Made by a program: the position numbers and the translations under genes
Part shown: one piece after another, positions 519-55,199 of the stretch
How the letters are laid out: the number at the start of each line of letters is the position of its first letter
Position numbering within the stretch: the first letter of the stretch is position 1
Source of the DNA: Minisyncoccota bacterium
GTDB taxonomy: Bacteria > Patescibacteriota > Minisyncoccia > Phycocordibacterales > GWA1-40-21
Assembly: GCA_041656855.1 (NCBI GenBank)
Contig: JBBACS010000001.1
Coordinates: 3,454 to 67,453, forward strand
DNA: 64,000 nucleotides
Reading direction: 5' to 3'
The notes under the pieces: model-generated
What the model was told of the DNA's origin: nothing
Database searches by the model: none
What the model saw: the letters and a program-made list of their open reading frames with translations, nothing else

Positions 519-519
519 T

Positions 520-659
520 TCACCCGTTAAAGTTTTTGCCAATGTTTGTTAAAAATTCATTAAATAAACAAAATCATGGTTTTAGATAAAAGTAATTTGA
601 TAGTATTGGTTGTTATGTCAAAACAAACAATTTTTATTGGCAAAAATTTTCTCGGGTAA
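520..659 (+). repeat. CCCG/CGGG-clamped palindromic element, family A copy A1 (140 nt); 3' arm abuts ATG 660
   Basis: Left arm TTCACCCGTTAAAGTTTTTGCCAAT (520-544) and right arm ATTGGCAAAAATTTTCTCGGGTAA (636-659) are imperfect reverse complements; same termini at 4018-4157 (minus) and 28949-29181. Confidence 0.85.
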
Positions 660-1425: not shown

Positions 1426-4017
1426 TTATTTAATTTTTATAGGGATTGTCGCCTCACCTTTATTATAGACACTATCATAAACTACCACCTTAAGTTCATT
1501 GATGCCTACAATAAAAGAATTAGTTCCTGATGGTACAAAATTTAATATATACGGATATGTCTCGGATGTTCCTATGAGCTCGTTATTTAAGTAAAAATTA
1601 GCTCTAGTAATGGGAAAACGTGCCATTGTAGAGAACACCACACCTAATCTATAATCCTTATCATATTCAAGATTTTGTAACGGAGCAAGAATTGTTACTT
1701 TTGGTTTATTTGCTTCGATGTGTATGTCATCATATGTGGTTGGTTTGCTAGTAGAAGCTTGCGGATGTGTTAGGAGCCAGTTTTGTACAGAAAATTCCCA
1801 AGCAAGAAATTGCGAATCATTCTCGGGGTTTATCGGGGCTGGACCTAAAGGATCATTTTTATCTACCCAATAAAGTATTGAGTGTATGTTTGGTATAGCC
1901 ACTTCTACTTTTGTTTCTTCCGGTGTCATATCCGTAGCAAGTTTACCTGATATTTTATCTATAAAATAAGTTTCATTTCCTTGCCATATTCCTCGGAGCA
2001 CTGGTTTGATTGTTTGATCAATTTCAGTGGGTTTTATAAAAGTTTCTCCTGTGGTACTTGCAAGAGCCGCTGCCATAACCTCATGCCACAATGGAGCCAA
2101 GATTGTTCCCGCAACTTTTTTTACCATAGGTTTGCCGCTATTGTTTCCAGCCCAAGCTCCTACAACTATTTCTGGTGTGTATCCAATAGTCCAAACATCT
2201 TTATAGTTATCCGTGGTTCCTGTTTTTGAGGCAACTTGTTTGCCATGAAAAAATAATGGAGAATTTATTCCATAAGCTGGAATTTTAGCAATGACATCAG
2301 ATAAAACATCGGAAATTGTTTCTGCAATGTTTGGATTAAGAACTGTTTGCGGATTTTGTGTGAAAGTTTCTAAAACATTTCCTTGTAAATCTTCCACAGA
2401 AAGAATTCCCGTATAAGGATTTCTGATTCCGTCGTTTGCAAAAACGCCATATGCACTCGTCATATCAAGCAAAGAAACTTCAGCGCCTCCAACAACTAAA
2501 GTTAAACCATATTGGTTTGAATCTTTAAGTCCTTTTACACCCATGGACGTTGCGGTTTCTATTGAATCTTTTATTCCAGCAAGATATAAAGTTTTTATAG
2601 CCGGAATGTTTCTAGATTGAGCCAAAGCATTTCTTAAAGATATGGGTCCTACATATTGGTTATCATAATCTTCGGGCATATAACATGCCGTAGAGGAAGA
2701 AATAACAGCAGTTGGATCTATAGGCAAACCTTCTGGAGTACAAGTGGTTTGAAATTCTGTTGGAAGATCGAAAACAACCGTGTCTGGCGTATATCCTTTT
2801 AGAAATGCAGTAGCATATACAAAAGGTTTAAATGTAGATCCTGGCTGTCTATTGCGTGCTATGGCCACATTAAAATTACCATCTATTTCTTTATCAAAAT
2901 AATCTCTAGAGCCGACCATGGCCAATATTTGTCCTGTTTTTGGATCTATTGCAACAACGGAAGCATTTTCTGCATCAAATTCTATTTTATTTTCAAGGGC
3001 TTTCCTTTTTGTTATTTCTTCAGCTTTTACTTGTAAATCATAATCAAGCGTGGTGATTATTTTAAATCCTTTTTGTTGTACTGCATCTTCACCGTATTTA
3101 TCTACTAAGTATTGTTTTATAAATTCTACAAAGTGTGGTGCCTTTATCCCGTATTTTTCTTGTGGAAGAAACGCTATTACTTCTTTTATTGCTTTGTCAT
3201 ATTCTTCTTGAGTGATGAATTTGTTTTCAAGCATCTTTGAAAGAATAAGTTTTTGTCTTGTATCTAACTGAACTTTATTTTGTCCATAAGGTGAATAATA
3301 AGTAGGTGCTTTTGGGATTGCAGCCAGATAGGCAGCCTCACCAAGAGTTACATCTAACGCTTTTTTACCAAAAAAAGTTTCACTTGCTTGTTCAACGCCA
3401 TAAATAGTTCCACCGTAGGGGTTTCCATTTAAATAAACAGATAATATTTCGTCTTTTGTCATTACTTTTTCAATTTCTATAGAAAGGACCCATTCTTTTA
3501 ATTTTCTAGAAATACTTTTTTCGGTTGTGAGCAATGAATTTTTGACTACTTGTTGTGTGATGGTGGAACCTCCTTGGCTAAAACTGCCAGAAAATATATT
3601 AGCAAACACAGCTCTTATGAAAGAAGAGATTTTTATTCCGCCATGTTGATAAAATTCAACATCTTCTATTGCTATCGTTGCATTTTTTATATCTTTAGAA
3701 ATATCTCCGAAAGGAACCACTGTTCTTTTTTTGCCCTCATGTATATCGTAAAGTAATATTTTCCCTGTGCGATCATATATTTTTGTAGACTGTGTTACGA
3801 TTCTTGTATCAAAAGATTGTAAGTCTGGCATTTGAAATGTGGAAATCCACAAAGCAATAAAACCACAAAAAACAAAAAATAAGGCAGATATTATAATAAA
3901 TATTTGCTTAGGATTCTTTTTTATAAAATGCAGAGTTTTTCTTGTTTTTGGTTTAATGTGGTGCTCAAAACTGTGCTTTATATGGTGTCTAGCTATCTCT
4001 AGCTTGTCTTTTAACAT
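1426..4017 (-). CDS. class A penicillin-binding protein (transglycosylase + transpeptidase) with C-terminal extension
   Basis: N-terminal TM; glycosyltransferase motifs EDVEFYQHGG, GGSTITQQ, RKLKEW; transpeptidase motifs STFKP, SRN, KTGTT. Confidence 0.9.
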   Translation of the reverse strand: MLKDKLEIARHHIKHSFEHHIKPKTRKTLHFIKKNPKQIFIIISALFFVFCGFIALWISTFQMPDLQSFDTRIVTQSTKIYDRTGKILLYDIHEGKKRTVVPFGDISKDIKNATIAIEDVEFYQHGGIKISSFIRAVFANIFSGSFSQGGSTITQQVVKNSLLTTEKSISRKLKEWVLSIEIEKVMTKDEILSVYLNGNPYGGTIYGVEQASETFFGKKALDVTLGEAAYLAAIPKAPTYYSPYGQNKVQLDTRQKLILSKMLENKFITQEEYDKAIKEVIAFLPQEKYGIKAPHFVEFIKQYLVDKYGEDAVQQKGFKIITTLDYDLQVKAEEITKRKALENKIEFDAENASVVAIDPKTGQILAMVGSRDYFDKEIDGNFNVAIARNRQPGSTFKPFVYATAFLKGYTPDTVVFDLPTEFQTTCTPEGLPIDPTAVISSSTACYMPEDYDNQYVGPISLRNALAQSRNIPAIKTLYLAGIKDSIETATSMGVKGLKDSNQYGLTLVVGGAEVSLLDMTSAYGVFANDGIRNPYTGILSVEDLQGNVLETFTQNPQTVLNPNIAETISDVLSDVIAKIPAYGINSPLFFHGKQVASKTGTTDNYKDVWTIGYTPEIVVGAWAGNNSGKPMVKKVAGTILAPLWHEVMAAALASTTGETFIKPTEIDQTIKPVLRGIWQGNETYFIDKISGKLATDMTPEETKVEVAIPNIHSILYWVDKNDPLGPAPINPENDSQFLAWEFSVQNWLLTHPQASTSKPTTYDDIHIEANKPKVTILAPLQNLEYDKDYRLGVVFSTMARFPITRANFYLNNELIGTSETYPYILNFVPSGTNSFIVGINELKVVVYDSVYNKGEATIPIKIK

Positions 4018-4157
4018 TTACCCGAGAAAATTTTTGTTGATGAAAATGTGTTGAGGTTATATGAGTAAGTAGTTTTTAAATAGATATACTCTTGTAAAAG
4101 AATACCTTCTATTTAACCCTCATTTTCAACACGTCAACAAAAACTTTAACGGGTGAA
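4018..4157 (-). repeat. family A palindromic element copy A2 (140 nt), minus orientation; 3' arm abuts PBP start codon
   Basis: Minus strand reads TTCACCCGTTAAAGTTTTTGTTGAC...CATCAACAAAAATTTTCTCGGGTAA-ATG; inner stem GTTGA/TCAAC differs from A1 but remains complementary. Confidence 0.85.
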
Positions 4158-4210
4158 TTATAGCATTTTGTCAGATAGAAAAAAACTATTTTTTATGATA
4201 GATTTGATGT

Positions 4211-5425
4211 ATGAAAATCAATACAGACCCAAAGAAAATTGAAGAAATTTTAAATAGGAGTGTTCAAAATATCTTACCTTCAAAGGATTTTTTCAGAAAA
4301 GAACTTTTGAGCGGTAGAAAATTAAAAATATATGTTGGGGCTGATGCTACCGGAACAAAACTTCATATAGGCCATGCTACAAACTTCATGATTATTGAAA
4401 GATTAAGACAGCTTGGACATGAAGTCATAATTCTTTTTGGTGATTTTACAGCGATGATAGGTGATCCTAGCGGAAAAGATTCAGCAAGAAAGGCACTTAC
4501 AAAAAATGATGTTAGTCAAAATCTAAAAAATTGGAAATCTCAAGTAAGTAAAGTTGTAAAAATCGGCGGAGTTGATAATGGAGCAAAGATAGTTACAAAT
4601 AGCACTTGGCTTTCAAAAATGAGCTTTGCAGATGTTGTAAAGCTTGCTTCAAATTTTACCGTACAGCAAATGCTTGAGAGAGATATGTTTCAAAAAAGGT
4701 TAGAAGAAAAGAAACCTATCTTTTTGCAGGAATTTTTATATCCATTAATGCAAGGATACGACAGTGTTGCTTTAGATGTTGATGTTGAAGTTGGAGGTAA
4801 TGATCAGACGTTTAATATGTTGGTGGGAAGAACTTTACAAAAAAATACAAGGAATAAAGAAAAATTTGTTGTTGCTACAACACTCTTAATTAATCCAAAA
4901 ACAGGAAGAAAATTAATGAGTAAAAGTGAAGGTAGTGTAATAGGTCTTGATGATGAATATCATGATATGTTTGGAAAGTGCATGTCACTTCCTGACGAAG
5001 CAATTATCTCAGTTTTCACAGACTGTACTTATGTTTCAATGGAGGAGATATCAGAAATTAAAAAACAGCTTGAAAATGGGGCCAATCCTCGTGATGCTAA
5101 ACTAAGATTGGGCAAAGAAATAGTAAAGATTTATTATAATCAAGAAAAAGCAGACAGTGCCGAAAAAGATTTTATAGAAACCTTTAAAAAAGGTGGTTTG
5201 CCAGAAAACATGGAAGAAATAAAAACAGAAAATGGGAAATCTCTCATGGAGCTTCTTGTTGAAAAGAAAATTGTTTCTTCAAAAACTGATTTTAGAAGGT
5301 TAATTTCTGAAAATGCAGTAAGTAATGCTGTAAATAGTGAAAAGATTACTGATGTAAATTTTAAAATACATAATGAAATAACATTAAAAATAGGGAAGAA
5401 GAGGTTTGTTAAAATTACTATATGA
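4211..5425 (+). CDS. tyrS: tyrosyl-tRNA synthetase
   Basis: HIGH motif (LHIGHATN), KMSKS motif (LMSKSEG), GDFTAMIGDPSGK, C-terminal S4-like domain. Confidence 0.9.
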   Translation: MKINTDPKKIEEILNRSVQNILPSKDFFRKELLSGRKLKIYVGADATGTKLHIGHATNFMIIERLRQLGHEVIILFGDFTAMIGDPSGKDSARKALTKNDVSQNLKNWKSQVSKVVKIGGVDNGAKIVTNSTWLSKMSFADVVKLASNFTVQQMLERDMFQKRLEEKKPIFLQEFLYPLMQGYDSVALDVDVEVGGNDQTFNMLVGRTLQKNTRNKEKFVVATTLLINPKTGRKLMSKSEGSVIGLDDEYHDMFGKCMSLPDEAIISVFTDCTYVSMEEISEIKKQLENGANPRDAKLRLGKEIVKIYYNQEKADSAEKDFIETFKKGGLPENMEEIKTENGKSLMELLVEKKIVSSKTDFRRLISENAVSNAVNSEKITDVNFKIHNEITLKIGKKRFVKITI

Positions 5426-5907
5426 AAGTTATAGCAATAGACCCAGGATATGAAAGAATGGGTGTAGCAGTAATAGAAAAAACTTCAAACAAAGAAGTTT
5501 TAGTTTTTTCTGAATGTTTTAAAACGAGTGCTATGATTCCGCATGAGGAACGTCTAAAATTAATTGGCCAGAAAATAGAAAGTTTAATTAAAAAACATAA
5601 GCCAGATGCAATGGCTATTGAGACATTGTTTTTTAAAAATAATCAAAAAACAGCTATGCATGTTTCTGAAGCGAGAGGTGTAATGCTTTATGTTGCTTCT
5701 GTTGCAGAAGTGGAAGTAAAAGAATTTTCTCCAATGGCGATAAAAATTGCCGTGACTGGATATGGAAGTAGCGAAAAAGGGCAAGTTACGGCTATGGTGC
5801 AAAAACTTATAAAAATAAATACCGATATAAAATATGATGACGAGTATGATGCAATAGCTGTAGGGCTAACTTTTTTTGCTTGTATAAAACAATTTTGTGA
5901 AAAATAG
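5422..5907 (+). CDS. ruvC: crossover junction endodeoxyribonuclease RuvC
   Basis: IAIDPGYERMGVAV, AIETLFF, DEYDAIAVG acidic motifs; ATGA overlap with tyrS. Confidence 0.85.
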   Translation: MKVIAIDPGYERMGVAVIEKTSNKEVLVFSECFKTSAMIPHEERLKLIGQKIESLIKKHKPDAMAIETLFFKNNQKTAMHVSEARGVMLYVASVAEVEVKEFSPMAIKIAVTGYGSSEKGQVTAMVQKLIKINTDIKYDDEYDAIAVGLTFFACIKQFCEK

Positions 5908-5911
5908 AAAA

Positions 5912-5929
5912 CGGGCCGTTTACGGCCCG
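5912..5929 (+). terminator. intrinsic terminator after ruvC
   Basis: CGGGCCG-TTTA-CGGCCCG hairpin followed by a T-rich tract. Confidence 0.65.
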
Positions 5930-5982
5930 CTTTCTGATTTGTATTTATGCTTTATTCTAAATCCTATCTTCTATATTCTAAT

Positions 5983-6249
5983 TTACCATTCATCATTAGC
6001 TTTGTAATCTCCAGAATCAATTTCATCTTCCTCCTCTTCTGCTAAGAGAGTTTCTTCTTCTAAAAGGGGATCTACGGGGGCCACTTCTTCAAAAGCATCT
6101 AGAACCCCATCTGATAAAGTTCCAGTTTCTTTTTCTGTCTCTTCTTCTCCTGCTACTTTTTTTATATCTTCCTTCTTCACTTTATCTTCTGTAATTTTTT
6201 TTGTTTTATGATTTTTAGGCATTGATTTTATGAAATCACGTAGCACCAC
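5983..6249 (-). CDS. small acidic hypothetical protein (listed ORF uses GTG 6249; ATG at 6222 more likely)
   Basis: Asp/Glu-rich ORF; ATG 6220-6222 is directly preceded on the minus strand by hairpin TGATTTCATAAAATCA, as for the gene at 25022. Confidence 0.5.
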   Translation of the reverse strand: MVLRDFIKSMPKNHKTKKITEDKVKKEDIKKVAGEEETEKETGTLSDGVLDAFEEVAPVDPLLEEETLLAEEEEDEIDSGDYKANDEW

Positions 6250-6468
6250 AGGGGTACTTCTTGTTTACTAAATCACTGAGTACAGCTCATAAGTAAACAA
6301 AGTTGCGCAACCATCTGATTAGCACTACAAATTTAAATTATTATTTTTTAATATACTGCTCTCTATGAGCTAGTAGGTACATTTTCCAAAATTTTCAGAA
6401 AAAAGCAACTGGTTTGACCTGTTGATAACTACCAAAATTCAAGAAACGAAGTTTCTATGAATTTTGAG

Positions 6469-6584
6469 TACCCCGTTAAAAGTCTTAACAAAATAATAAT
6501 TTATAATTAATATAGAGCCGAAGGCGGGTTTGTAAACAGCTTTTTCGTAAAAAATATACTCAATTTAGACTTTTTAATGGGGTC
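6469..6584. repeat. palindromic element related to families A/B (copy A4), intergenic
   Basis: TACCCCGTTAAAAGTCTTAA ... TTAGACTTTTTAATGGGGTC inverted arms about 75 nt apart. Confidence 0.7.
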
Positions 6585-6596
6585 TGAGATAATAAT

Positions 6597-6629
6597 AAAA
6601 GCCGTTTTTGTCTAGCAAAAACGGCTTTT
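6597..6629. terminator. bidirectional intrinsic terminator downstream of the 1409-aa gene
   Basis: 14-bp stem AAAAGCCGTTTTTG/CAAAAACGGCTTTT, 5-nt loop. Confidence 0.75.
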
Positions 6630-6652
6630 ATTTTCACAAAGATAATATGTGA

Positions 6653-9600
6653 TTAGACCACCAAATTCATATTTATAACTCCAGTCTTTATTTCTATAGC
6701 TTCTGTCTTGAACACTTCTGTATAAGTCCCATCATCCTTTTTCTTTTCTACTTTGATGGAATATTTTCCATTAGGTACAAGAGCATAATAAGCCCCAAAT
6801 TTGTCAGCAATTTTCTTTGTAAGCGGAGTATCTTCACCTTCTCTGAATATGGAGACGATAGCAAAGGATAGAGGAGCTTTTGTATGTTTTTCAGTAAGAG
6901 TACCTGATTTCTTAGTCTTGAGTACTACATAATTTAATATGTAAGCTACTATATAGAATCCTGCGATAATGAAGTTGTATGGTGCAGGTGCAAAGATAAC
7001 GGCAATGAAGGCAACTATGGCACCGATAAAGAAGATGACGCTTGATATCTTGGCCCAAGTAATATCTTTTTGCTTCATGAATTTATTTACATTCATCTTG
7101 GTCTTGGCAAATTCATTCCAATCAAATGATAGAGAGTCCATAGGAATATTTTTTGTAATAATTGCGCCTTCTGTTTCAACTGTCATCTCTTCACCAAAAT
7201 ATAAATCATTGTAGACTTCATCAAATGATCTACCTGCCATTTTCTTTGATGGCTGAATATAATTTGTTTTTGTTGCAACTATTTTGTATTTACCTGGTAA
7301 TACAAGGAATCCATATCTTCCATCTATATCTGTAATAGCTCCTGCTACTTCCTTTCCTGTCTCTATACTGATTAGAGATACATACACAGGGTCTAGAGGT
7401 CTCTTTGTGACTGAATCATAGACTGTACCCCATTGTCTTTGTTTTCTCTTTATACCAAGAGCACTGAGAAGCAAGGCAAGTATTCTTGCAGGAATCAACC
7501 ATATTTCAGAGAAAGATATTGGAGTAGCAAAGGCAATTGCTGATATAGATATTGTAGCTCCAGCAATTATACCTGTGGTTGAAATAACTTTTGTTACAGC
7601 AGATCCAGTAGGAGTATTTACTATTGCTCTTGTATTAGCGATTGCATTCTTGGCAATAGATATTACTTGGTCATAACCTTGTTTTGCAGATACACCTATA
7701 TCAGGAACAACGTTCTGATTTGTTTCTGTTCCTGCACTAGTTTCAGTTTGTTGTTCTTGAGTTGGAGTTTCTACTATATCGGTAATTACTTCTGGAATTG
7801 TATTTTCTGGAGCTTTTGGTGTTTCAACTTTTGGAATTACAGGAGCAGAAACTTCTGGAATTGTCTCACATCCTAAAATATCATTTGCTTTCTTTCTTGT
7901 AGCATTTCCAAAGTTTCCAGTTCCTTCTGCTAGACCAAATGGAGCTAATATATCATCTGCATAATATTCTTGGAATGAATGAACTGCAAGTATTGTTTTT
8001 GAACCATAGTAAGTTGTTTCTGAACCTTTTGTTGATGCATTAAATCCTTGGCTGTTTAGGAATATTTGTAGATTTTTTATATCTGAATCTGTTGTGTATT
8101 GATGAAGATTTTTAGTAAAGCAGAAGCCTGAAGGAAGATTAGGAGTTGATGTAACCCCCGGTGCTTCTTCTATTTCTTCAGTAGAAGAAGATGTTGCAAG
8201 TGCTAATGTTGTGGTTGTTGAAGGAACTGTAGAAACTTCTGTAGAGCCTGATGATGGAGAACGGTGTCCACTACTCAAAGCTAAAGTGGTGAATGTAGCA
8301 TCACTTGAATAAGTAGTACCTAAACGATCTGTGATGAAAGCTTGGTAGTGGTATGTGGTGCTAGCTGATAATCCCGTAATATCTGCAGAATATTCACCTG
8401 TAGAAAAAGATCCGGGTTCAGTATATACCGCGGCAACATTCATGCTTCCAATTTTATTTTTATTTACAGCAAATCCAGATGATTCTTTTGTGGTCATTGC
8501 ATATTCCGTGGTAGTACCATATCTGAAACCTCTTGCGGTTATTGTTTCTCCTGCTGTGCTTGTGATGTTTGCTTTCAATGTTGCTGATATATCAGCAACT
8601 ATAGGTGTTTCCAATTCCACATCACGAACAGAAATAATTGACCCGAAAACTGATGAAGAGAAATAACTAAAATTTCCCGCTGCATAAAGAGTGGACCCTG
8701 ATAAGGATAAAGTATATGCAGTAGTCATATGGTCACCTGATTGAGGATTCGGATTAAAACTTGTCGTGGTTGCGACGTCAAGATCATATGCCGCAAGACT
8801 ATTACGCGTTAGACCATTAAAAGTAGTAAAACTTCCTCCCACAAAAAGAATAGAGTCAAATATGGTCATCGTTCGTACAGAAGAACCTGTAGTTGGAATT
8901 ATATTTAAACTTGTCGTAGTTGCGTTTACAAGATCATATGATGCGATGCTTTTTCTAGGTAAACCACCGAAATTGGTAAAATATCCGCCAGCATAGAGAG
9001 TAGAGGTTGCTATTAATAAAGAATTTATTGTTGATGAGTCACCAGGATTTGGGATTGGACCAGGATTAAAATCTGTAGTGGTAGCGTTTGCAATATCATA
9101 TGCGGCAAGACGGTTACGATCGAGGTCTCCAAAAGTGGTAAAATTTCCTCCCACATAAAGAGTTGAACTTGATATGGTGAGAGCATTTACAACAGCAGGG
9201 GTACCTCCCACACCTGGATTAAAATCTGTCGTAGTAGCTGTGAGAATATTGTATGCAGCTATATTATTACGATTGAAACCACCAAAGGTATCAAATTGTC
9301 CTCCCGCGTATAAAATGTCATCTGATATCGCTATGGAATATACATAAGGGGAAAAGCCGGCTCTTGTTATTCCTGGATCAAAATCTGTAGTAGTGTCTGT
9401 GAGAAGATTATATGCCGCAAGGTCACTACGTGTCAGACCATCAAAAATATCAAACCAACCACCCACATAAAGTATATTGTCTGATATAGTCAAAGTGTAT
9501 ACGGCGTGTCCACTATACCATCCTACATTTGGATTAAAATCTGTTGTATTTCTATTTACAAGATCATATGCAGCTAGCCTGTTTCTTGTTTGGCTACCCA

Positions 9601-11626: not shown

Positions 11627-12766
11627 TTATAAACCCAATCCTTTCACTTTCTTTCCCAAATGCTTTCTTGCTCTGTCTGTTACTGTTCTTCCTCGTGGCG
11701 TTCTTTCTATAAGACCAAGTTTGAGAAGATAGGGTTCGTAAACATCTTCTATTGTTGCTTGTTCTTCTGAAAGGGCAGCTGCGAGTGTATTTAAACCAAC
11801 AGGACCACCATTAAACTTATCATCTATAATATTGAGCATCGCTCTATCTTCAGCGTTAAGGCCAAGTTCGTCGATATTAAGCATATTTAGAGCCTCTTTT
11901 ACTAGATTATTTGTAAGTGTTTGTTCTTTTACTTGAGCTAAATCACGCCCTCTTTTTAAAAGATAGTTTGCGGTTCTAGGTGTGCTTCTGCTTCTTTTTG
12001 CAATTTCAGATTTTGCTTCTTTATCAATTTCTACACCAAGAATTTTTGCAGAGCGTTCAATTATTTTTTCTATTTCTTCATCTGAATAAAATTCTAGTTT
12101 AAAAACACCGCCAGAAAAACGAGAGCGTAGTGGGGCAGAGAGCATTGCGATTCTTGTCGTAGCTGCTATCAAAGTAAATGGTGGAATATCAAGTTGTATT
12201 GTTCGAGCAGACGGACCTTTACCAATTATGATGTCTAATGAGCCGGATTCCATAGCAGGATAGAGAATTTCTTCAATTGTTTTGTTGAGTCTGTGAATCT
12301 CATCTATAAAAAGAATATCTCCAGGTGAAAGATTTGTAAGAATTGAAGCAAGATCACCAACTTTTTCTATTGCTGGACCCGAAGTTGATTTTAATTGTGC
12401 ACGAGTCTCTTTAGCGATAAGATTTGCCAAAGTAGTTTTTCCAAGTCCAGGCGGACCATAGAAAAGTAAATGTTCAGGAGGATGTTTTCTCTGTTCGGCA
12501 GCTTTAAGTAAAATTTTAAGATTATCTTTGATATTTTTTTGACCGATGTATTCTTCCCAAGAGTTTGGCCTTAGGGTTTGGTCTAGGAATTTTTCGTCAG
12601 TAGTTATATGGCCATTTTCTTTAGTATTCTGAGATTCAGTGGGTTTTTTATCATTTTTTCTTGACATAATGTTTTTCCATGATATACTCTTGGCAGAGCC
12701 TTGATGGGGCCTTTTTTGTTCCCCATTTTTATTTTGTTGCAGTTCTGAATATAAATCTCTAAACAA
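11627..12766 (-). CDS. ruvB: Holliday junction helicase RuvB (listed ORF starts at TTG 12766; ATG 12667, MSRKNDKK..., more plausible)
   Basis: RP..WEEYIGQ, Walker A GPPGLGKTT, DEIHRL, C-terminal winged helix; the first 33 codons overlap an inverted-repeat element. Confidence 0.9.
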   Translation of the reverse strand: MFRDLYSELQQNKNGEQKRPHQGSAKSISWKNIMSRKNDKKPTESQNTKENGHITTDEKFLDQTLRPNSWEEYIGQKNIKDNLKILLKAAEQRKHPPEHLLFYGPPGLGKTTLANLIAKETRAQLKSTSGPAIEKVGDLASILTNLSPGDILFIDEIHRLNKTIEEILYPAMESGSLDIIIGKGPSARTIQLDIPPFTLIAATTRIAMLSAPLRSRFSGGVFKLEFYSDEEIEKIIERSAKILGVEIDKEAKSEIAKRSRSTPRTANYLLKRGRDLAQVKEQTLTNNLVKEALNMLNIDELGLNAEDRAMLNIIDDKFNGGPVGLNTLAAALSEEQATIEDVYEPYLLKLGLIERTPRGRTVTDRARKHLGKKVKGLGL

Positions 12767-12901
12767 TTATGCTCGCAAGAGTTTACGGGTTCTTTTTCAA
12801 GGACATTTTGGTTTATTCCTCCGGGAATATTGCTGAGGTCATCCTTAAAGACTAATTTAACTTTTTACCGCCAGGTTTAAAGTATTGTTTAGAGATTTAT
12901 G
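12751..12901. repeat. 17-bp perfect inverted repeat pair ATAAATCTCTAAACAAT / ATTGTTTAGAGATTTAT flanking 117 nt
   Basis: 12751-12767 and 12885-12901 are exact reverse complements; related ATTGTTT(A/G)GA copies at about 12912 and 12955. Confidence 0.75.
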
Positions 12902-13170
12902 TTTTGAACATTGTTTGGAGTTTATTCCAAAACATCTCTTATGTTTTATATTAGTATTGTTTAGAACTTTTGCAAGCCCGCTTTTTTTTAAAACACGTTT
13001 AGGCTTGCTATTCAAGTAGGGTAGTGAATTTTGACACCGAAATTGTTTTTTCGTTTATATAGTTATCAGTTATTTTTTTAAATGAACTATCTATAAATAA
13101 AAAACATCATTTTGATTGATATCTCAAATAACGATGTCAAAATTTAATACCTTACAAAATATATTTAATA

Positions 13171-17721: not shown

Positions 17722-17745
17722 ATAAAATATAATTATATCTTTATC

Positions 17746-17789
17746 ACTACTAACCTCATCTACGCCATGGCGTAGATGAGGTTAGTAGT
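17746..17789. repeat. 44-bp perfect palindrome P1 (core CATCTACGCCATGGCGTAGATG)
   Basis: ACTACTAACCTCATCTACGCCATGGCGTAGATGAGGTTAGTAGT; likely also the tsaE terminator hairpin. Confidence 0.9.
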
Positions 17790-17804
17790 ATATAATATTT
17801 ATAT

Positions 17805-18185
17805 ATGAATAAATCAAGAAGATATAAAGGTGTTCCAATAAATTCTTTTGGTATTCCAATACTTAATCCAACTAAAGAAAAAATAAAAGATAAGATTGAT
17901 AGAAGAATTTATCACGATAGTTTTTCAATAAATTTAACTAATTCTTCACCAAAGAATCTTATTGTTATGTATGATATTCCCCATGCACAGAAAAAGGAGA
18001 GAGATTGGTTTCGTAGACATTTAAAAAAGTTTGGTTACATAATGATTCAAAAAAGTGTTTGGGTCGGACCATCCCCGCTACAAAAAGATTTTTTGGAATA
18101 TGTTAAATCCATTGGTTTACTTGGCCAATTAAAATCTTTTAAATTAGCAAAATCATACACAGGTAAAGAAAACTTATTTAAATAA
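17805..18185 (+). CDS. orphan Cas2-fold (Cas2 / PaaX C-terminal-like) protein with about 50-aa N-terminal extension
   Basis: Ferredoxin-like pattern LIVMYDIP-(helix KKERDWFRRHLKKFG)-YIMIQKSVWVG typical of Cas2/PaaX_C; no cas1 or CRISPR array in window. Confidence 0.55.
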   Translation: MNKSRRYKGVPINSFGIPILNPTKEKIKDKIDRRIYHDSFSINLTNSSPKNLIVMYDIPHAQKKERDWFRRHLKKFGYIMIQKSVWVGPSPLQKDFLEYVKSIGLLGQLKSFKLAKSYTGKENLFK

Positions 18186-24927: not shown

Positions 24928-24973
24928 ATTCGGTATAACTTGTCGTTATTTAATAACTTTATCAATTTAATTT

Positions 24974-25021
24974 ACGTCGCGCTTAATGAACGGCTGCGCT
25001 TGACGTGATTTTGCAAAATCA
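24974..25021 (+). repeat. family C two-hairpin motif, copy C2; second hairpin abuts ATG 25022
   Basis: ACGTCGCGCTTAATGAACGGCTGCGCTTGACGTGATTTTGCAAAATCA-ATG. Confidence 0.8.
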
Positions 25022-28000
25022 ATGAAAAAAATATTTATATCACTCCTTTCTGTATTTGTTCTCGGTGCAGTTTTTTGTAATGTTGCATCTGCACAAACGG
25101 TAGAGTCTATATCATATACTGTGGCTACAGTAAATATATATAATTCAAAAATAGTCTCAAGTAATGACAGGAACTACAAAATATCTTTTGACTTATCAAA
25201 TGATAGCGGCGTCCAATCTCAGATACGATATTCTGTACAACTTACAAAAACAGTATCAAGTTCATCGGATGTAGTAGTAGATGAGAAAATATATGACCCA
25301 ATATTCTCTATAGACGAAAAAACAACTATTCCCCAATCTGTAGTTTATTCAATACCAAGTTCGCTAGGGAAGGGTGATTACAAACTTTGGGTTTATAGTA
25401 AAAACAATAACGGTCTTATTTTAGCTGCTGCCTATGTTGGTGAAATAAAACTTACCACTGATCTTCCAAATACAGTAGAAATAATTCCAGAGTCTTGTTA
25501 TGTCACAATAAAAAATAATGCTAATTCAAGCAAGTATTATCTTGGAGATTTGGCAAGTATTGTTTCAAAAGATAGTTTGGTAATGAATTGTTCTGTTTCT
25601 AACAGATATACATCAGATGTATCACTTGTACCTTTGTTTGAAACAAGAGTTCGTTCTATGTATGGAGAAACAGTGTCACAGATAGAAGGAACACAGGGGA
25701 CAATTACTATAAAAAAAGGTAAAAATAATATCGAAGTAGCTTTGCCAAAAGCTTTAGTCCCACAAACATACGTAAATGTTTTTTCTTTGGTATCAGATGA
25801 CAAAAAAATATCTACAAACAATATTATTACAACTTATTCTTTGGAAGGAGAAAGTGGTTCTATAATGAATGCGGTTTTTGACAAAACTTCATACAAAAAG
25901 GGAGAAATCGCTAATGTTAAGATATTCTCAATGCTTGAATTGAGCGGAAGTACTTCCACTGCATCAACCGCTTCAATATCTGTCTCGGTCACCAATCAAG
26001 AAAACAGACTTTGTTCAGAAGTAATTAAAAAAGATGCATCTACTGCGCCGGTGGTAGAAATACCTGTTCCTGTGATAGAAGATTGTGTAAATCCAAAAGC
26101 TAACATTATTCTTTCTTCCACAAATACAAACGGAGAAAATCTCGCTCTAGATACCCAAAGTTTTGATGTCACTACACCAAAGAAAGATATTCCTATTGAT
26201 TATAAACAAATTGCCATTGCTTCTGTTATATTTATTTTATTAATTATTATTTTAACAATTATATACAGGAGGAAAAATGTTTCTGTAATAAAAGTTCTTG
26301 CACTATTTATCATTTGTGCCGGATTTATGCTAGGTATGACAAATAAGGCGGAAGCTTTAACGGAGTACATAAAATATCAGACGTCTAATAAATCCGACGA
26401 TAATTGTTATTATAATATGGCTGATTGTTACATGAATTTTACTTATAATTTAAATAAAGCTAGCACAGATTTTTATTTACCTGGTGAATCTATTATTGTT
26501 ACAGGTATAGTGGGGGGAGGTAAAGCGGATACCCCATCCTTGAATCCAGCCGGACGTCAATACCATACTGTGTACATGAAGGATTTAAAAATAGATAGTT
26601 CAAGTGATCAAAGAATATTAGTGCAAAGTGATGTCCAGGGGCCTTGGGATAAGTGTTCCGATAATTGGAACAGATCCTTTCCAAACAAAACAGGTACACA
26701 AACTTTCACAGCACCTTCTACTCCGGGGGTTCATAATATGAATGTTACATATTATAATAATTTTAGTTGGTTATCTTATGGATTGTTTTGTATAACGGGA
26801 CAAACCCAAAATTCTACTAATATCTTTGCTACAAGATCTTTGCCTTTTACAGTTAAAGATATTATTACTCCCACTTATTCATTAGATTTTCATCTTTCTA
26901 AGGACCCTTCTTATATTGGTGAAGTAGAAGGAAATACTGTGACCGTTTCTTTGTATACAACAAATGTTAGTAATGGAACTTTAGTTCCTTATACTATTAC
27001 TGGTGTGAGCCAAGCTGATATCGGAGTACCTCTCTCTGGACATTTTACCGCTGTTACCAACAATTATTATTCAGAACTACAAATACCAATTCTTACAGAT
27101 AATATAACTGAGGGCCAAGAGAAACTTGTTTTGTCAGTAGGAAATACTCAAGGAGGTTTCACTATTCTTGATAAGATTGTTGTTTCTGCCGATATATCAG
27201 CAAATCCGAACCCTGTTTTGGCAGGTAGTTCATCAACTATTTCTTGGACTTCAACAGGATTTGATTCCTGTACCATGACAAATGAGAATACTGGTTCTTT
27301 ATTAAATAATTTATCTTGGACTTCAATTCCAAACGCAGTTGGTTATGTATCAAAGGCGATAACTTATGGAAATGGTTTATTTGTTGCTGTGGAGGATAAT
27401 CACTATATAAATCCAATTCGAGGGGCAATTATGACTTCTCCTGACGGTCTAACGTGGACAGCACGTACCTCACCAACAACAAATGTTTTGTATTCTGTTG
27501 CTTATGGTAATGGAAGATTTGTTGCAGTTGGAGTCGGTAATAAAATTATTACATCTACAAATGGAATAGACTGGGTGGCAACCCCTGGTCCAATTGAACA
27601 AACCTCAACAACATGGGTATCCGTAACATATGGTCCACTTTTGTGGGTAGCTATTGGTGGTGCGGGTCAATCAATGACTTCTAGTGATGGATTAACTTGG
27701 AAATCACAGGGGAATGGAATGCGTTATGGACTGGAAGCAGTTATCTATGGCGCAGGATTTGTTGCTGTGGGAGAAGGGGGGGTACAAACTTCACTCAACG
27801 GTCTTAATTGGACTACTCAAACTCCAGCTGTTTCAGCACATTGGAATTCGGTAGCCTATAGCCCAACTGGAACCGTACGATATGTTGCTGTTTCCTATGG
27901 CGGTAAGATAATGACAGCCCCTGTTAGTGGAAATGTTTGGACACTAAGAAACACTCCAGTTACTTTTGATCCTAGTGATCTCGGTACTAATTATTTGAGT

Positions 28001-28837: not shown

Positions 28838-28890
28838 GAAACAGTATTTAGAATATAGTATATAGTATGTAGAAAATACTAAAACAAAAA

Positions 28891-28913
28891 GCGGGGCGAC
28901 TTCGTCGCCCCGC
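28891..28913 (+). terminator. intrinsic terminator
   Basis: GCGGGGCGAC-TTC-GTCGCCCCGC then TTTTT. Confidence 0.85.
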
Positions 28914-28948
28914 TTTTTGTTGTTTGGTTTTTTTGTATAAAAAAGATA

Positions 28949-29181
28949 TTCACCCGTTAAAGTTTTTACTAACGCATTATGCACGATACACCTGTTTTTA
29001 TAGTGTTTATTTTAATTTATATACCATTTTTATATATAAAACGAAACCGACTTATCGCATAATGCAAAAAAGTTATTTTTAGGTTAAAATATAGAGTAGT
29101 TATATGAATATGGTCTCTTCAAAAAATAGTATACAAAAAGTCGCCCATAACTTTTTTATTAGTAAAAATTTTCTCGGGTAA
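28949..29181 (+). repeat. family A palindromic element copy A3 (233 nt); 3' arm abuts pilB ATG
   Basis: TTCACCCGTTAAAGTTTTTACTAA ... TTAGTAAAAATTTTCTCGGGTAA-ATG; inner hairpin CGCATTATGC/GCATAATGCG-like. Confidence 0.85.
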
Positions 29182-33169: not shown

Positions 33170-33171
33170 TC

Positions 33172-33217
33172 TCGTCGCGCTTAAATGACGGTTGCGCGAC
33201 GTGATTTCGCAAAATCA
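33172..33217 (+). repeat. family C two-hairpin motif, copy C3
   Basis: TCGTCGCGCTTAAATGACGGTTGCGCGACGTGATTTCGCAAAATCA; perfect 8-bp stem CGTCGCGC/GCGCGACG. Confidence 0.85.
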
Positions 33218-46078: not shown

Positions 46079-47434
46079 ATGAAAAAGAAAGAGATAAAAC
46101 CAAGTATTTGGGATGTCGCTGTTATCGGAGGTGGCCCTGCAGGGCTTATTTCTGCTGGAATTGCTGCTCAAAATGGTACAAAGGTGATTCTCATTGAGAA
46201 GAATGAAACCATGGGAAATAAGCTACTTTTGACTGGTGGAGGACGCTGTAATCTTACAAATGTTGAACCAGACGAAAGAAGTTTTGTTTCAAAATATGGA
46301 AAGAAGGGAAGTTTTCTTTTTTCTCCACTTTCTGTTTTTGGAGTGCAAGATACGATAAGATTTTTTGAAAAAATTGGTTTAAAAACAAAAGTTGAAGCCG
46401 GGTATAGAGTCTTTCCAGAAAGTGGTAGTGCTATGGATGTACTTGGTGTACTTACAAAATTTGGAATGAATAATAAAGTTGAATACATGACGGGAGCAAA
46501 TGTTATTGGTATAAAAAAAAATCGAGGTAAGATTATTTCAGTTGTTGTTGAAGATGGTTCACCCGAAAAAATTTTGCCTGACGCATTTGCTAAGGCAAAT
46601 GCAAGAAAAATCTCAGATTTTTCATCAGGCAAAACTTTAGCGGGTAAAGAAATAAAAGCTAAAAATTTTATTCTTGCTACTGGTGGAAAGTCATATCCAG
46701 AAACTGGTTCAACAGGAGATGGTTTTAAGTGGTTGAGAGAAATTGGACACAAAGTTGCAGAACCGAACCCTTCCCTTGTTCCTATTAAAGTAAAAGAAAA
46801 TTGGATTAGTGATTTTGCAGGAATATCTTTAGATAATGTTGGTATATCTATCTGGCAAAATGATAAAAAAGTATTTGGAAAAGTTGGAAGAGTTTTGATT
46901 ACTCATGATGGTTTTTCTGGCCCAACAATCTTGAATATGAGCAAAGACATCGGCGAATTACTTGCAAATGGTGAAGTTAAAATTGCTATAGATTTTTTCC
47001 CAGGAGTAGGACTTGATATTATGAATCAAATGATGATAAAAGCTTTTGAAGGGAATGCTACTAAAAAAATAAAAAATCTTGTTTTTAAAGAAGTCCCAGA
47101 AAAAATTTATTTTAAAATATTAGATATTATGGGAATGGATGGAGAATGGCTTGCAAATGAAGTTAAAAAAGCAGAAAGAATGGCAATCATGGATGAATTT
47201 AAAAAGTTTGATTTTGTAGTTGAAGGTCTTCATGGATTTGAAAAATCAATTGTTTCAAGTGGTGGTGTAGATTTGTCTGAAGTTGATTTCAAAACAATGC
47301 AGTCAAAACTTTATGACAACTTGTATTTGGTAGGGGATATTTTAGATTTTGATAGAAATTCTGGTGGTTACTCATTGCAACTCTGTTGGACGAGTGGTTA
47401 TATTGCAGGTAAATCGGCTGCTAAAAATATCTAA
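46079..47434 (+). CDS. BaiN/HI0933-family FAD-dependent oxidoreductase (listed ORF starts at 46052)
   Basis: VIGGGPAG dinucleotide-binding motif, GGGRCN, ILATGGKSYPETGSTGDGF. Confidence 0.8.
   Translation: MKKKEIKPSIWDVAVIGGGPAGLISAGIAAQNGTKVILIEKNETMGNKLLLTGGGRCNLTNVEPDERSFVSKYGKKGSFLFSPLSVFGVQDTIRFFEKIGLKTKVEAGYRVFPESGSAMDVLGVLTKFGMNNKVEYMTGANVIGIKKNRGKIISVVVEDGSPEKILPDAFAKANARKISDFSSGKTLAGKEIKAKNFILATGGKSYPETGSTGDGFKWLREIGHKVAEPNPSLVPIKVKENWISDFAGISLDNVGISIWQNDKKVFGKVGRVLITHDGFSGPTILNMSKDIGELLANGEVKIAIDFFPGVGLDIMNQMMIKAFEGNATKKIKNLVFKEVPEKIYFKILDIMGMDGEWLANEVKKAERMAIMDEFKKFDFVVEGLHGFEKSIVSSGGVDLSEVDFKTMQSKLYDNLYLVGDILDFDRNSGGYSLQLCWTSGYIAGKSAAKNI
46560..46647. repeat. family A-type palindromic element (about 88 nt) inserted in frame in the flavoprotein gene
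   Basis: CACCCGAAAAAATTTTGCCTGA ... TCAGGCAAAACTTTAGCGGGTAA, nested hairpins GCATTTGC/GCAAATGC and GAAAAATC/GATTTTTC; encodes SPEKILPDAFAKANARKISDFSSGKTLAGK. Confidence 0.85.
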
Positions 47435-50997: not shown

Positions 50998-51033
50998 TTC
51001 CCTTTTTCCATTTAATTGATAACATATAATAAT

Positions 51034-54000: not shown

Positions 54001-54540
54001 CATTTGGAAAATTGGACAGAAGAATTTGTTGGAGAACTTTCTGCTGAAGAAACTGAAGTTTTAGAAAAAATGAGAGAAACGAGAATCATAGTTTCTGTCG
54101 GACTTGAGGCTCGCGCAAAAGCAGGTATAAAAGTCAGACAGCCTCTTGCTAGCTTGAAAGTTAAAAGTGTGAAGCTTATGGGCAGTGAAGAATATTTGGA
54201 ACCCATTAAAGATGAAGTAAATGTTAAAGAAGTAATTTTTGAAGAAATGATTGCTGGAGATGTGGAACTCGATACTGTTCTTACAGAAAGATTGAAAGAT
54301 GAAGGTGCAAGCAGAGATATTATAAGGGCAATACAGGAAATGAGAAAAAATAAAAAACTAAATCCGTCTGATCAAGTTGAACTTTTTGTTGAAACGAGCG
54401 ATGATGGAAAAGAATTGATAAATAAGTTCTATAATGAAATTTCAAAAGTTGCTGGACTAAAATCGATATCTTTCAAAGAGTTTAAAGAAGGGGAAGTAGT
54501 TGAATTGGAAACTATGAAGTTTAAAATTCATATAAAATAA
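51034..54540 (+). CDS. ileS: isoleucyl-tRNA synthetase (type 2-like) with an embedded histidine-phosphatase domain (listed ORF starts at TTG 51016)
   Basis: PHFGH (HIGH), editing CP1 region, DMHRPFID, CWFESGSMPYA, KMSKH. Confidence 0.9.
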   Translation: MTENSKEKLVLKNKVAEREEEILKFWQEKEIFKKTLEKPAPNGEFVFYDGPPFATGLPHFGHILPGTMKDYMGRYETMKGKHVSRRWGWDTHGLPIENIVEKEMGFKSKKDIEDFGLEEFNDIARSKVFTYVDEWKKIVPRLGRFVDMENDYRTLNPSYTETVWWIFKELHKKGLVYEGFKSMHLCPHCGTTLSNFEVGQGYKDITDISVTVKFELVDEPGTYFLAWTTTPWTLPGNVALAVNPDIDYVKIKVGNIKLILAELRLSVIKEPYDIVEKVEGNALVGLSYKPIFDYYNNDDLKNKENGFKVYDAAFVTTEDGTGIVHIAPAFGEDDMNLGKEKKLPFIQHVTVDGRFKTEVEDFAGQKVKPIENSQLADIEIIKYLAGKGTLYAKEKFIHSYPHCYRCDTPLLNYAASSWFVEVTKFKDKLVEANKKIKWVPKEVGEGRFGKLLEGAPDWAISRSRFWGAPLPVWKCSCCPVKEFIGSIDEIKERTKSTNKFLVVRHGEAKSNVLDILSSNPKTVNHLTEKGREQAVEASKNLKDKVDIIYCSPFMRTKETADIIAENIGYPKDKILYDDRLHEINGGEMDGRPDPEYQAFFTNRKEKFFRSPKGGETYTDAKKRMTDFLYDIDKKYEGKNILIVSHNTPIWLMFSGALGLNREQTLATRVAGTPFIHNSEIKEIPFAPIPHNREYELDMHRPFIDEITLKCPCGGDMKRIPEVFDCWFESGSMPYAQVHYPFENLDKFNPEKGIGFPADFIAEGVDQTRGWFNSLLIIGIALFDKSPYKSVATNGILLAEDGQKMSKHLKNYSDPMGVVDMYSADAMRYYLLSSSATRAEDLKFSNKGVDEVLKKIIMRLQNVYTFFEMYGGFDLDLTKKDEYKKPKNILDKWILARLKETATQITKATDGHEFDRATRPIGDFVDDLSTWYLRRSRDRFKSEDVPDRNSAMFTTRTVILEFSKLLAPGMPFLAEDLYLKITGGMEKESVHLENWTEEFVGELSAEETEVLEKMRETRIIVSVGLEARAKAGIKVRQPLASLKVKSVKLMGSEEYLEPIKDEVNVKEVIFEEMIAGDVELDTVLTERLKDEGASRDIIRAIQEMRKNKKLNPSDQVELFVETSDDGKELINKFYNEISKVAGLKSISFKEFKEGEVVELETMKFKIHIK
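52531..53040 (+). other. inserted histidine phosphatase (PGAM-like, branch 1) domain within ileS
   Basis: Ordered motifs VVRHGEAKSN (RHG 52543-52551), CSPFMRTKETA, HEINGGEMDG, LIVSHNTPI (His 52966-52968). Confidence 0.75.
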
Positions 54541-54579: not shown

Positions 54580-54608
54580 TTGACAATATTTGCTTCCGAC
54601 TCTAGACT
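54580..54608 (+). promoter_or_regulatory. promoter predicted to give a leaderless recO mRNA
   Basis: TTGACA, 17-nt spacer, TAGACT, then 6 nt to ATG 54615. Confidence 0.6.
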
Positions 54609-54614
54609 AGTTGT

Positions 54615-55199
54615 ATGCATCACATTTATACTACCAAAGCTATAATCATAAAAAGTGTTCCTATTGGAGAGGCAAATAAATATTACTTTTTACTTACAGA
54701 AGATTTAGGCTTTGTAAGGGCTAGTGCACAGAGTGTTCGCTTGGAAAAATCAAAGTTGAAAGGGCACTTGCAGGATTTTTGTTTTATTGAAGTATCTCTG
54801 GTAAAAGGAAAAGATATTTGGCGTATTATAGGTGTTGAAACTATACAGTCTGGGTATTTTATAAATAATATAAATAAACTTGTCGCAATTAAAAATATAT
54901 TTTCTTTGCTTCTCAGATTGCTTCATGGGGAGGAAAAAAATGAGCTTCTTTTTAATAGTATTAAGTCTTTTTATGATTTTTTGCTAAAGGATGAATTGTC
55001 ACAAAATAATATAAAAAATCTAGAAACAATCACGGTACTCAGAATCTTATATCATCTAGGCTATTTTAAAAAGTCTTTTGATTTGTCTGATTATGTTATG
55101 GACGATAAATTATCAATAGAGATATTAGATTTATTTGAATCAAAGAATAAAATTGCAATTTTGGATATAAATAATGCGCTTAATGAAACCCATTTGTAA
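54615..55199 (+). CDS. recO: DNA repair protein RecO (short form)
   Basis: N-terminal OB-fold pattern (TKAIIIKSVPIGEANKYYFLLTEDLGFVRASAQSVR). Confidence 0.7.
   Translation: MHHIYTTKAIIIKSVPIGEANKYYFLLTEDLGFVRASAQSVRLEKSKLKGHLQDFCFIEVSLVKGKDIWRIIGVETIQSGYFINNINKLVAIKNIFSLLLRLLHGEEKNELLFNSIKSFYDFLLKDELSQNNIKNLETITVLRILYHLGYFKKSFDLSDYVMDDKLSIEILDLFESKNKIAILDINNALNETHL

Follow-up and report, generated by a model that had tools for sequence, protein, structure and literature searches.

Family A: a proposed family of short palindromic, MITE-like DNA repeats serving as promoter and leader modules in Patescibacteria

The DNA analysed here, referred to throughout as the window, is a stretch of 64,000 nucleotides of contig JBBACS010000001.1 from a Minisyncoccota bacterium. 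It carries four copies of a repeat, here termed Family A, whose near-identical ends enclose different interiors. We interpret Family A as an undescribed, lineage-specific family of short, non-coding, palindromic (foldback) mobile DNA repeats of tiny-genome Patescibacteria that resemble MITEs (transposable elements of the miniature inverted-repeat kind) and serve as promoter and 5′ untranslated region (5′UTR) modules, a reading to which we assign a probability of roughly 70%. The long copies (classes I–III, defined below) would supply a promoter and/or an entire 5′UTR lacking a Shine–Dalgarno (SD) sequence to housekeeping genes. The short copies (class IV) lie beside gene 3′ ends or in-frame in open reading frames (ORFs), where, as read from the coding frames, they are translated as a peptide of about 30 residues. 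On this reading, Family A adds another case to a type of element already known and is not a novel RNA switch.

Within the window, the 19-nt 5′ motif TTCACCCGTTAAAGTTTTT occurs exactly at 519-537 (+), 4139-4157 (−) and 28949-28967 (+), and a copy with three mismatches lies at 46630-46648 (−). These four matches compare with 0.06 expected by chance, and four were reached in 0 of 100 shuffles. The 3′ motif AAAAATTTTCTCGGGTAA is exact at 642-659 (+), 4018-4035 (−) and 29164-29181 (+) and recurs with three mismatches at 46559-46576 (−), against a chance expectation of 0.41. An ATG stands directly 3′ of each of the three exact copies. All four copies were recovered independently by a repeat finder as inverted repeats with arms of 24-26 nt and 83-85% complementarity, and their inner stems read GCCAAT/ATTGGC, GTTGA(C)/(A)TCAAC, ACTAA/TTAGT and, in the intragenic copy, GCCTGA/TCAGGC. 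The original prediction, made from the letters of the window, had proposed near-identical ends that can pair and that enclose complementary inner stems, and it is confirmed on each of these points, stem sequences included. When folded against shuffled sequences, copies 1-4 gave z values of −4.5, −6.9, −2.9 and −9.8, respectively, and the opposite strand of the intragenic copy 4 gave −8.2. The copies, two promoter-like boxes associated with them and two empty sites considered below are as follows:

519..659 (+), copy 1, class I, 141 nt; 5′ arm and stem at 519-543, stem and 3′ arm at 636-659
598..606 (+), TGATAGTAT, a weakened, putative extended −10 box within copy 1, placed by the class I/II alignment
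4018..4157 (−), copy 2, class II, 140 nt; flush with the ATG of the penicillin-binding protein (PBP1A) gene (1426-4017, minus strand)
4157..4165 (−), TGCTATAAT, extended −10 box abutting copy 2; its final T is the first T of copy 2
28949..29181 (+), copy 3, class III, 233 nt; between the terminator at 28886-28918 (of ORF 25022-28837) and the pilB ATG (29182)
46559..46648 (−), copy 4, class IV, 90 nt, a three-way hairpin; within the HI0933-like flavoprotein gene 46052-47434 (+), in-frame and antisense to it
54163..54181 (+), empty site in the isoleucyl-tRNA synthetase (IleRS) gene (51016-54540); filled in the L009 orthologue
54580..54617 (+), empty site before recO, with a plain leaderless-type promoter; filled in the L009 orthologue

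Copy 1 had been placed at 520-659; its end holds, and the motif match at 519-537 moves its start to 519. It takes up the entire gap from the stop codon of dnaN (516-518) to the first codon, ATG, of ORF 660-914.

To survey the family beyond the window, reference genomes, one per species, were scanned with TTYACCCGYTAAAGTTTT, which yielded at least 114 loci (numbered with the prefix L); all element counts for reference genomes given here rest on the matches listed. About half of these loci were chance matches in unrelated phyla without a partner arm. The remainder came, among the matches listed, from about 19 metagenome-assembled genomes of Patescibacteria with titles such as Paceibacterota, Taylorbacteria and Minisyncoccia; a few carriers were labelled Saccharibacteria and one Nanoarchaeota. 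A tolerant search for the partner arm then gave at least 83 distinct complete elements from these genomes and the window, comprising 58 of classes I–III and 25 of class IV, a small sample of loci selected by the arm motif itself. The window's own genome was absent among the representatives, and its closest matches shared 73-82% identity in coding DNA. The density is four copies per 64 kb in the window and several per genome in the roughly 19 carriers. Searches of full-text literature for MITE-like or palindromic repeats in Patescibacteria found no description of the family, and Rfam covariance models applied to the whole window gave no match at the gathering score, permissive settings returning only chance miRNA-like hairpins with E-values up to 5. 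No complete copy was found in IMG/VR viral contigs, where 12 matches to the 5′ arm all lacked a partner arm. A phage origin was rejected on these grounds, and at least four of the 12 matches (L126-L129) apparently lie in ubiquitin-like genes. Those four have flanks in common whose reverse complement reads as a ubiquitin-like N-terminus (MQIFVKTLTGK in L129), and AAAACTTTAACGGGTAAA encodes KTLTGK. They are chance matches rather than elements.

Elements range from 73 to 322 nt and contain no conserved ORF; their cargo is AT-rich and holds promoter-like boxes. The ends, about 19 nt each, read TTYACCCGYTAAAGTTTT(T) and (A)AAAATTTTYTCGGGTRA, pair with each other and are conserved in all members. 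The closing helix common to all copies, predicted to comprise 23 pairs, consists of an outer ACCCG/CGGGT stem, a 2×2 pyrimidine mismatch, AAAG/TTTT with an invariant G.T, a T-run opposite an A-run, and a sub-terminal stem; the paired ends also hold one C.A (or T.G) mismatch. The sub-terminal stem spans 5-7 bp and is free in sequence, and its two sides are always complementary. Four cargo classes were distinguished. Class I (about 141 nt) has a GCCAAT-type stem and includes copy 1, class II (about 139 nt) has a GCTGAC or GTTGAC stem and includes copy 2, and class III (150-322 nt) has an ACTAAC stem and includes copy 3; class III cargo includes a GCATTATGC hairpin of variable length and a AAAAAAGTTAT...ATAACTTTTTT hairpin. 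Class IV (about 90 nt) forms a three-way junction with two small hairpins and a cargo of about 42 nt, and includes the intragenic copy 4.

Within a class, copies from different genomes that stand before unrelated genes show 66-86% identity along their full length, so the interiors represent subfamilies. The interiors had been described as unrelated, and they look so only when the window copies are set against one another: the interior of copy 1 is about 80% identical to copies at other genes in other genomes, and that of copy 2 is 66-73% identical to copies before unrelated genes elsewhere. Across genomes with no more than 73-82% identity in coding DNA, the arms hardly vary and the cargo drifts. 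In the only clean orthologous pair, the pilB copies of the window and L048, the arms are 92% identical, with differences that include a compensatory ATCCG/CGGAT change, compared with 59% for the cargo and 55% for third codon positions. At L094 (2080-2540), a class I and a class III element lie in tandem with an overlapping arm in common, the second element having a TTAAAG-type arm at both ends.

Pairing between the arms was assessed in 38 distinct arm pairs of classes I–III. In these, 96.7% of cells were paired, and sliding the partner by 1-3 columns lowered pairing to 34-62%. Changes on both sides of a pair occurred in 43 cells against 15.4 ± 2.9 in shuffles (reached in 0 of 500), and compensatory change was seen in six pairs. 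Each of five inner stem positions showed 2-4 pair types, there were 40 stem haplotypes among 78 copies, and the outer stem ACCCG/CGGGT was changed to ATCCG/CGGAT in four copies. Class IV gave compensatory changes in 16 of 35 predicted pairs, cargo hairpins included. The compensatory variation originally reported in the sub-terminal stem is therefore borne out in a far larger set.

The original note had allowed for a helix of RNA or of cruciform DNA; selection on a sense-strand RNA helix is not supported. A strand-specific RNA helix is expected to tolerate G.U over A.C and to keep a constant orientation to transcription, and neither was observed. Among non-Watson-Crick exceptions, G.U and A.C numbered 6 and 5 in the stem and about 9 and 9 in class IV. 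Position 3 paired as C.A in 50 copies, as T.G in 18 and as C-G in none, C.A and T.G being the same mismatch viewed from either strand. The asymmetry of the arms is reversed relative to the gene in five copies that are still flush with the ATG; in the sense RNA of such copies, G.U becomes A.C and the pyrimidine loop becomes a purine loop. Since there is no strand bias, the arms are swappable, class I carries an internal promoter and class IV copies are antisense, this pattern points to complementarity kept in a DNA-level palindrome rather than in strand-specific sense RNA. Arm complementarity would then be a property of the DNA element, serving hairpin or cruciform propagation or maintained by templated repair within the palindrome, and the arms may be recognised by a putative protein.

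The long classes occupy a narrowly defined genomic position, exactly between the previous stop codon or a native −10 box and the next ATG. An ATG follows the element directly in 33 of the 58 long copies. In 30 of them the offset to the start of an ORF of 70 aa or more is 0, and in 43 an ORF start lies no more than 14 nt away, which supports, for the long copies, the original statement that the 3′ arm ends at the start codon. The stop codon of the preceding same-strand gene abuts the element in nine of the 58 and lies in the 5′ arm TAA in three more. Downstream genes identified by Pfam scan include pilB, pilC, PBP1A, trmD, ftsW, murG, rnc, a ribonucleotide reductase gene and dnaX; others, recognised solely from N-terminal sequences, we take to be, for example, recG, murB and ychF.

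Among the 25 class IV copies, none directly adjoins an ATG. ORFs of the opposite strand contain five of them, and for seven the 3′ end of a convergent gene is no more than 40 nt away; relative to the gene around or before it, a class IV copy is antisense. The host genes of in-frame antisense copies belong to four unrelated families: HI0933-like protein, pseudouridine synthase, RNase H and IleRS. The peptide encoded by class IV, PEKILPDGKS.IF.ALDKKSNASGKTLAGK, or its flipped-cargo form, is present in all four. Copy 4 contributes about 28-30 residues to the HI0933-like protein, of which residues 170-197 do not align to the solved homologue PDB 2i0z. A 63-aa concatenated query of the class IV peptide found no match in a protein database at E ≤ 0.01, a threshold below which matches so short fall. 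ATTCGTAGCCATTCG sequences, similar to the ATTCG-rich short repeats of the window segment 30950-31463, flank class IV copies in L010 and L069.

Comparison of orthologous loci revealed filled and empty sites. The L009 orthologue of IleRS contains a 90-nt class IV copy as an exact 30-codon insertion, and the window gene is empty at that point. Before recO, the window has a promoter of TTGACA, 17 nt, TAGACT, 6 nt and ATG without an element; in L009, a 142-nt class I copy stands between TAGACT-AA and the same ATG. The pilB genes of L048 and L054 are 93% identical and have in common an upstream terminator and the promoter TTGAAC-17-TGATATAAT; in L048, a class III copy of 300 nt separates the conserved 19-nt leader from the pilB ATG and fits exactly between them, and L054 has none. 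Cargo classes are also exchanged: the pilB-pilC junction, with the same flanks, is occupied by class I in L054 and by class III in L048, and the copy before trmD is of class I in one genome and of class II in a second. One genome holds two copies that are 94% identical, with similarity ending a few nucleotides outside the arms. The original note had argued for selection on a helix rather than simple duplication; that contrast does not fit the filled and empty sites or the in-frame insertions in four unrelated genes, which indicate a dispersed, duplicative repeat gained or lost in DNA. The class I copies of L031 and L098 are 98% identical and have the same upstream flanks, followed by trmD in L098 and by no long ORF in L031; this element may mark a rearrangement break point.

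Some apparent cases were discarded. Orthology of the window PBP1A copy with L103, L087, L090 and L021 was rejected because the downstream proteins are only 22-31% identical, which places these copies at different genes; orthology of the copy downstream of dnaN with L004 and L096 was rejected likewise. Arm pairs 1.4 kb apart in L015, considered as an autonomous parent, proved to be two separate short copies, before a membrane-protein gene and nusA. A TAA lies 5′ of 18 of the 58 long copies, compared with 2.2 on average elsewhere, and mirrors the TAA with which the element terminates. A 3-bp TAA target duplication is nevertheless doubtful: the flanking TAA frequently belongs to a −10 box or serves as the stop codon of the gene before, which can explain the enrichment, it is essentially never present at class IV, and it never matches TGA-type 3′ ends.

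Cargo and sub-terminal stem are inverted relative to the arms in two of about 20 copies of class III and in 6-7 of about 24 of class IV, and the break points fall where T-run and stem are perfectly complementary. Scanning metagenomes for class III in the reversed state added three further copies. In all five (L095, L097, L115-L117), the gene's ATG abuts the other arm and the cargo faces the gene, so either arm can be gene-proximal. No reversed copy was found among 39 aligned copies of classes I and II.

Sigma-70-type −10 boxes occur in classes I–III, inside the element in class I and against its 5′ end in many class II copies. A near-perfect extended −10 box, TGnTATAAT, occupies a fixed place in about 20 of 26 aligned class I copies, where copy 1 has TGATAGTAT, and −10-like hexamers of this class cluster 55-59 nt from the 3′ end of the element. 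Because class I carries its own internal extended −10, its main transcript would lack the 5′ arm. At the 5′ junction, 19 of 58 long copies have a TAnnnT hexamer whose last base is element position 1, and no other offset has more than nine. TGCTATAAT abuts both window copy 2 and a class II copy at a non-orthologous gene (L103), and L087 has TGCTATAC, with one mismatch. A transcript driven by TGCTATAAT would begin some 7 nt inside copy 2, in its 5′ arm; copy 2, at least, is thus probably transcribed as a leader from the abutting extended −10.

The wider window offers a matching context. In 10 of 51 ORFs, the end of a TAnnnT box is exactly 6 nt from the start codon that follows, which is the peak of the distribution, and SD-like GGAG/GAGG is present in only 3-5 ORFs, so initiation without a leader or an SD appears to be normal here. 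Examples with a leaderless look lie upstream of 17805, 18305, 36206, 44798, 54615, 58597 and 60435. The three genes behind window copies 1-3 had been noted to lack an SD; this is correct, and most genes of the window likewise lack one. On the favoured reading, the −10 boxes would be active, and a transcript of a whole element would contain an imperfect arm duplex of about 24 bp ending 0-3 nt before the AUG, which RNase III could cut. Such an RNA-level consequence is plausible, since some copies must be fully transcribed and RNase III is encoded in an element-carrying genome (Pfam scan). The L048 element is one of these copies, because it lies downstream of the native pilB promoter.

Several points weigh against the interpretation of Family A as mobile promoter and leader repeats. 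There is no consistent target-site duplication among the copies and no clear one at the three filled/empty sites. The Pfam scan of 58 window ORFs contained no transposase or recombinase, and no longer parent element with the same ends was present among the recovered loci, with arm pairs considered up to several kb. Insertion exactly flush with an ATG matches no known transposition mechanism, and loss by slippage, instead of gain, could have produced the empty sites. In the pilB pair, because the arms are far more similar than the cargo, which has diverged about as much as third codon positions, the arms appear to be under constraint in place and most of the cargo unconstrained, which is unexpected of a dead selfish repeat. 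Promoter activity and mobility are themselves deduced from comparison of metagenome-assembled genomes.

The same observations can be read at the RNA level. Under a cis-acting RNA leader, the arms would pair in the mRNA and either hide the start region or form a site for RNase III or another double-strand-specific nuclease, giving a short or leaderless mRNA in an organism that already translates many mRNAs of the leaderless type. The prediction of long, stable hairpins with a 3′ strand reaching to the AUG, the strong compensatory variation, the invariant G.U pair with its conserved internal loop and the conservation of arms in place in true orthologues are all consistent with this account. So are the transcription expected of the L048 element, the extended −10 that borders the 5′ arm in copy 2 and in many further copies and would turn the whole element into a 5′UTR, and the −10 peak 6 nt before starts in a window with very few SD sites. 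RNase III, encoded in a carrier genome, is retained across the candidate phyla radiation (PMC12641178), and it cleaves the inverted repeats of Correia elements (PMC10969869, PMC2649163). However, G.U is not in excess of A.C among the exceptions, the arm asymmetry is inverted in five ATG-flush copies, and the main class I transcript would omit the 5′ arm. A start about 7 nt past the abutting −10 would likewise omit the outer ACCCG, yet ATCCG/CGGAT compensation occurs there in four copies. Class IV uses the same arms antisense to its host genes, and no Rfam family matches. We regard an RNA leader as the basis of the family as unlikely.

Alternatively, the elements may be domesticated repeats whose arms are handles for a dedicated host protein, REPIN/RAYT-like or a site-specific recombinase, that inserts, excises and exchanges cassettes. 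Near-invariant arms around drifting cargo argue for this, as do different cargo classes between identical arms at one junction (pilB-pilC in L048 and L054, and likewise before trmD), repeated cargo inversion with break points in the complementary T-run plus stem, and ATG-flush insertion without clear target duplication. However, no candidate protein was found, with none in the window; RecA, RuvABC and RecO are present, so that ordinary recombination or template switching could give the swaps and inversions; and the loci are few and were picked by the arm motif. We consider this account rather improbable. Its fullest form, in which the near-invariant arms are sites of a dedicated machinery that places, exchanges and occasionally flips promoter-leader cassettes at start codons, the transcribed duplex perhaps being cut to a leaderless-type mRNA, is a still more speculative proposal.

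pilB is a typical target of phase variation, and a recombinase might turn pilB and other genes ON and OFF by flipping the promoter cargo that the inverted repeats enclose. Such invertons would explain why inverted repeats flank a promoter-bearing segment and why both cargo orientations occur in classes III and IV, and Correia elements can invert (PMC10969869). Nevertheless, the reversed-state metagenome scan led us to reject the idea as highly improbable: the three copies that it gave, like L095 and L097, all face a gene, leaving no OFF state among the 58 long copies. None of the 39 aligned class I/II copies is reversed, the window contains no invertase gene, and the targets are essential housekeeping genes. 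The class IV cargo, at about 42 nt, is too short for recombinase-mediated looping.

If Family A is a mobile promoter and leader repeat, it has consequences for how these genomes are read. Patescibacteria (the candidate phyla radiation) are described as streamlined, and the family indicates that a small selfish palindrome can spread there, supplying candidate promoters and complete 5′UTRs to essential genes such as pilB, a penicillin-binding protein gene, ftsW, murG, trmD and rnc and adding peptides to enzymes, much like the Correia elements of Neisseria and the palindromic elements of Rickettsia. The repeats offer landmarks for annotating promoters and start codons in SD-less genomes and are likely break points for assembly and synteny. 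Their natural arm and compensatory variants form a ready set for asking whether RNase III processing feeds leaderless translation. Were the cassette machinery real, bacteria whose genes are otherwise leaderless would possess a system of promoter cassettes working across the whole genome.

Other features of the window were also recorded. A second repeated leader, CGTCGCGCTTAA(A)TGA(A)CGGYTGCGC..GACGTGATTTYGCAAAATCA, possibly with a hairpin of its own, is found at 24962-25021 and 33169-33217, directly before ORF 25022 (1271 aa, no Pfam match) and ORF 33229 (pilin cluster); its 3′ halves are identical at 25002-25021 and 33198-33217. Inverted repeats at 12742-12909 and 13016-13155, with arms of 26 and 29 nt lying 116 and 82 nt apart, occupy a 400-nt spacer from ruvB to a second pilB-like ATPase gene and may represent other foldback families. 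The IleRS gene (51016-54540) contains a His_Phos_1 histidine-phosphatase domain (aa 507-674) inside the catalytic domain, which is kept in the L009 orthologue (3556-7227). Between pilB and pilC, the segment 30950-31463 comprises a PD-(D/E)XK_3 ORF (31004-31381) flanked by ATTCG-rich short repeats; the corresponding junctions of L048 and L054 contain only a Family A element. An orphan ORF of 126 aa at 17805-18185 has Cas2/PaaX_M-like domains and is preceded by a 39-nt perfect-type palindrome (17729-17806); no Cas-family domain was detected in the other window ORFs scanned.

Several known systems resemble Family A in part. It has the traits of MITEs, namely terminal inverted repeats, small size, non-coding, multicopy and dispersed occurrence, and filled versus empty orthologous sites, produced by gain or by loss. 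REP/REPIN sequences are inverted doublets that form a long imperfect hairpin, lack target duplication, are inherited vertically with long-conserved arms and are considered to act as single-stranded DNA hairpins. Family A is similar in its inverted arms without consistent target duplication, and its covariation without strand bias fits a DNA hairpin. However, it has no GTAG-type 5′ motif, and REPINs neither carry promoter cargo nor stand flush with start codons. A RAYT/HUH Y1 domain was absent from the 58 window ORFs scanned, no systematic genome-wide search having been made. The RNase III hairpins between early genes of phage T7 are imperfect intercistronic structures with an internal loop, whose cleavage divides the cistrons from one another and fixes the 5′ end of the mRNA that follows. 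Copy 1, which exactly fills the spacer between dnaN and ORF 660, is like them in resemblance only; the T7 sites are not mobile repeats. Integron attC sites, with paired R boxes RYYYAAC/GTTRRRY beside cassette ORFs and an IntI gene, were considered and rejected: the architecture of paired boxes, unpaired spacer and variable top is similar, but GTTAAAG stands opposite TTTTCTC, which is not complementary, the neighbours are core housekeeping genes, and no integrase was found.

The closest parallels are two families of bacterial repeats, which between them offer precedents for the behaviours that favour the main reading (PMC10969869, PMC2649163). Correia elements (CREE/NEMIS) of Neisseria are non-coding, about 100-160 bp long, with inverted repeats of about 26 bp and hundreds of dispersed copies mostly immediately upstream of genes (PMC2649163, PMC10969869). 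They contain promoters internally and at the junction of element and flank, occur in long and short forms with variant repeat combinations, and have been reported to invert; their transcripts fold and serve as RNase III substrates, with the inverted repeats as the sites of cleavage (PMC2649163, PMC10969869). Family A is comparable in size, inverted repeats, upstream placement, internal and junction promoters (putative here), long and short forms, and inversion. It differs in that sequence and host phylum are unrelated, one arm pair carries four unrelated cargo classes, the sub-terminal stem is free yet complementary, and 33 of 58 long copies end exactly at a start codon; moreover, Correia elements duplicate a TA target, whereas the Patescibacteria family has no consistent duplication. 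Membership of the Correia family was accordingly rejected, the arm sequence being different and TA duplication absent, and the likeness is one of behaviour only. Rickettsia palindromic elements (RPEs), of about 100-150 bp, lie in-frame in unrelated housekeeping genes of a host-dependent bacterium with a reduced genome, where the conserved extra peptide is translated, and have no known transposase (PMC10969869). Class IV is like them in its in-frame position in four gene families and its conserved encoded peptide. Unlike RPEs, Family A has an unrelated sequence and belongs to Patescibacteria rather than Rickettsia, only its short class lies in ORFs (five of 25), and its long classes form putative promoter and leader modules at the starts of genes, a trait that RPEs lack. 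The simplest account of the results as a whole is a MITE-like family of mobile palindromes that combines Correia-like with RPE-like behaviour.

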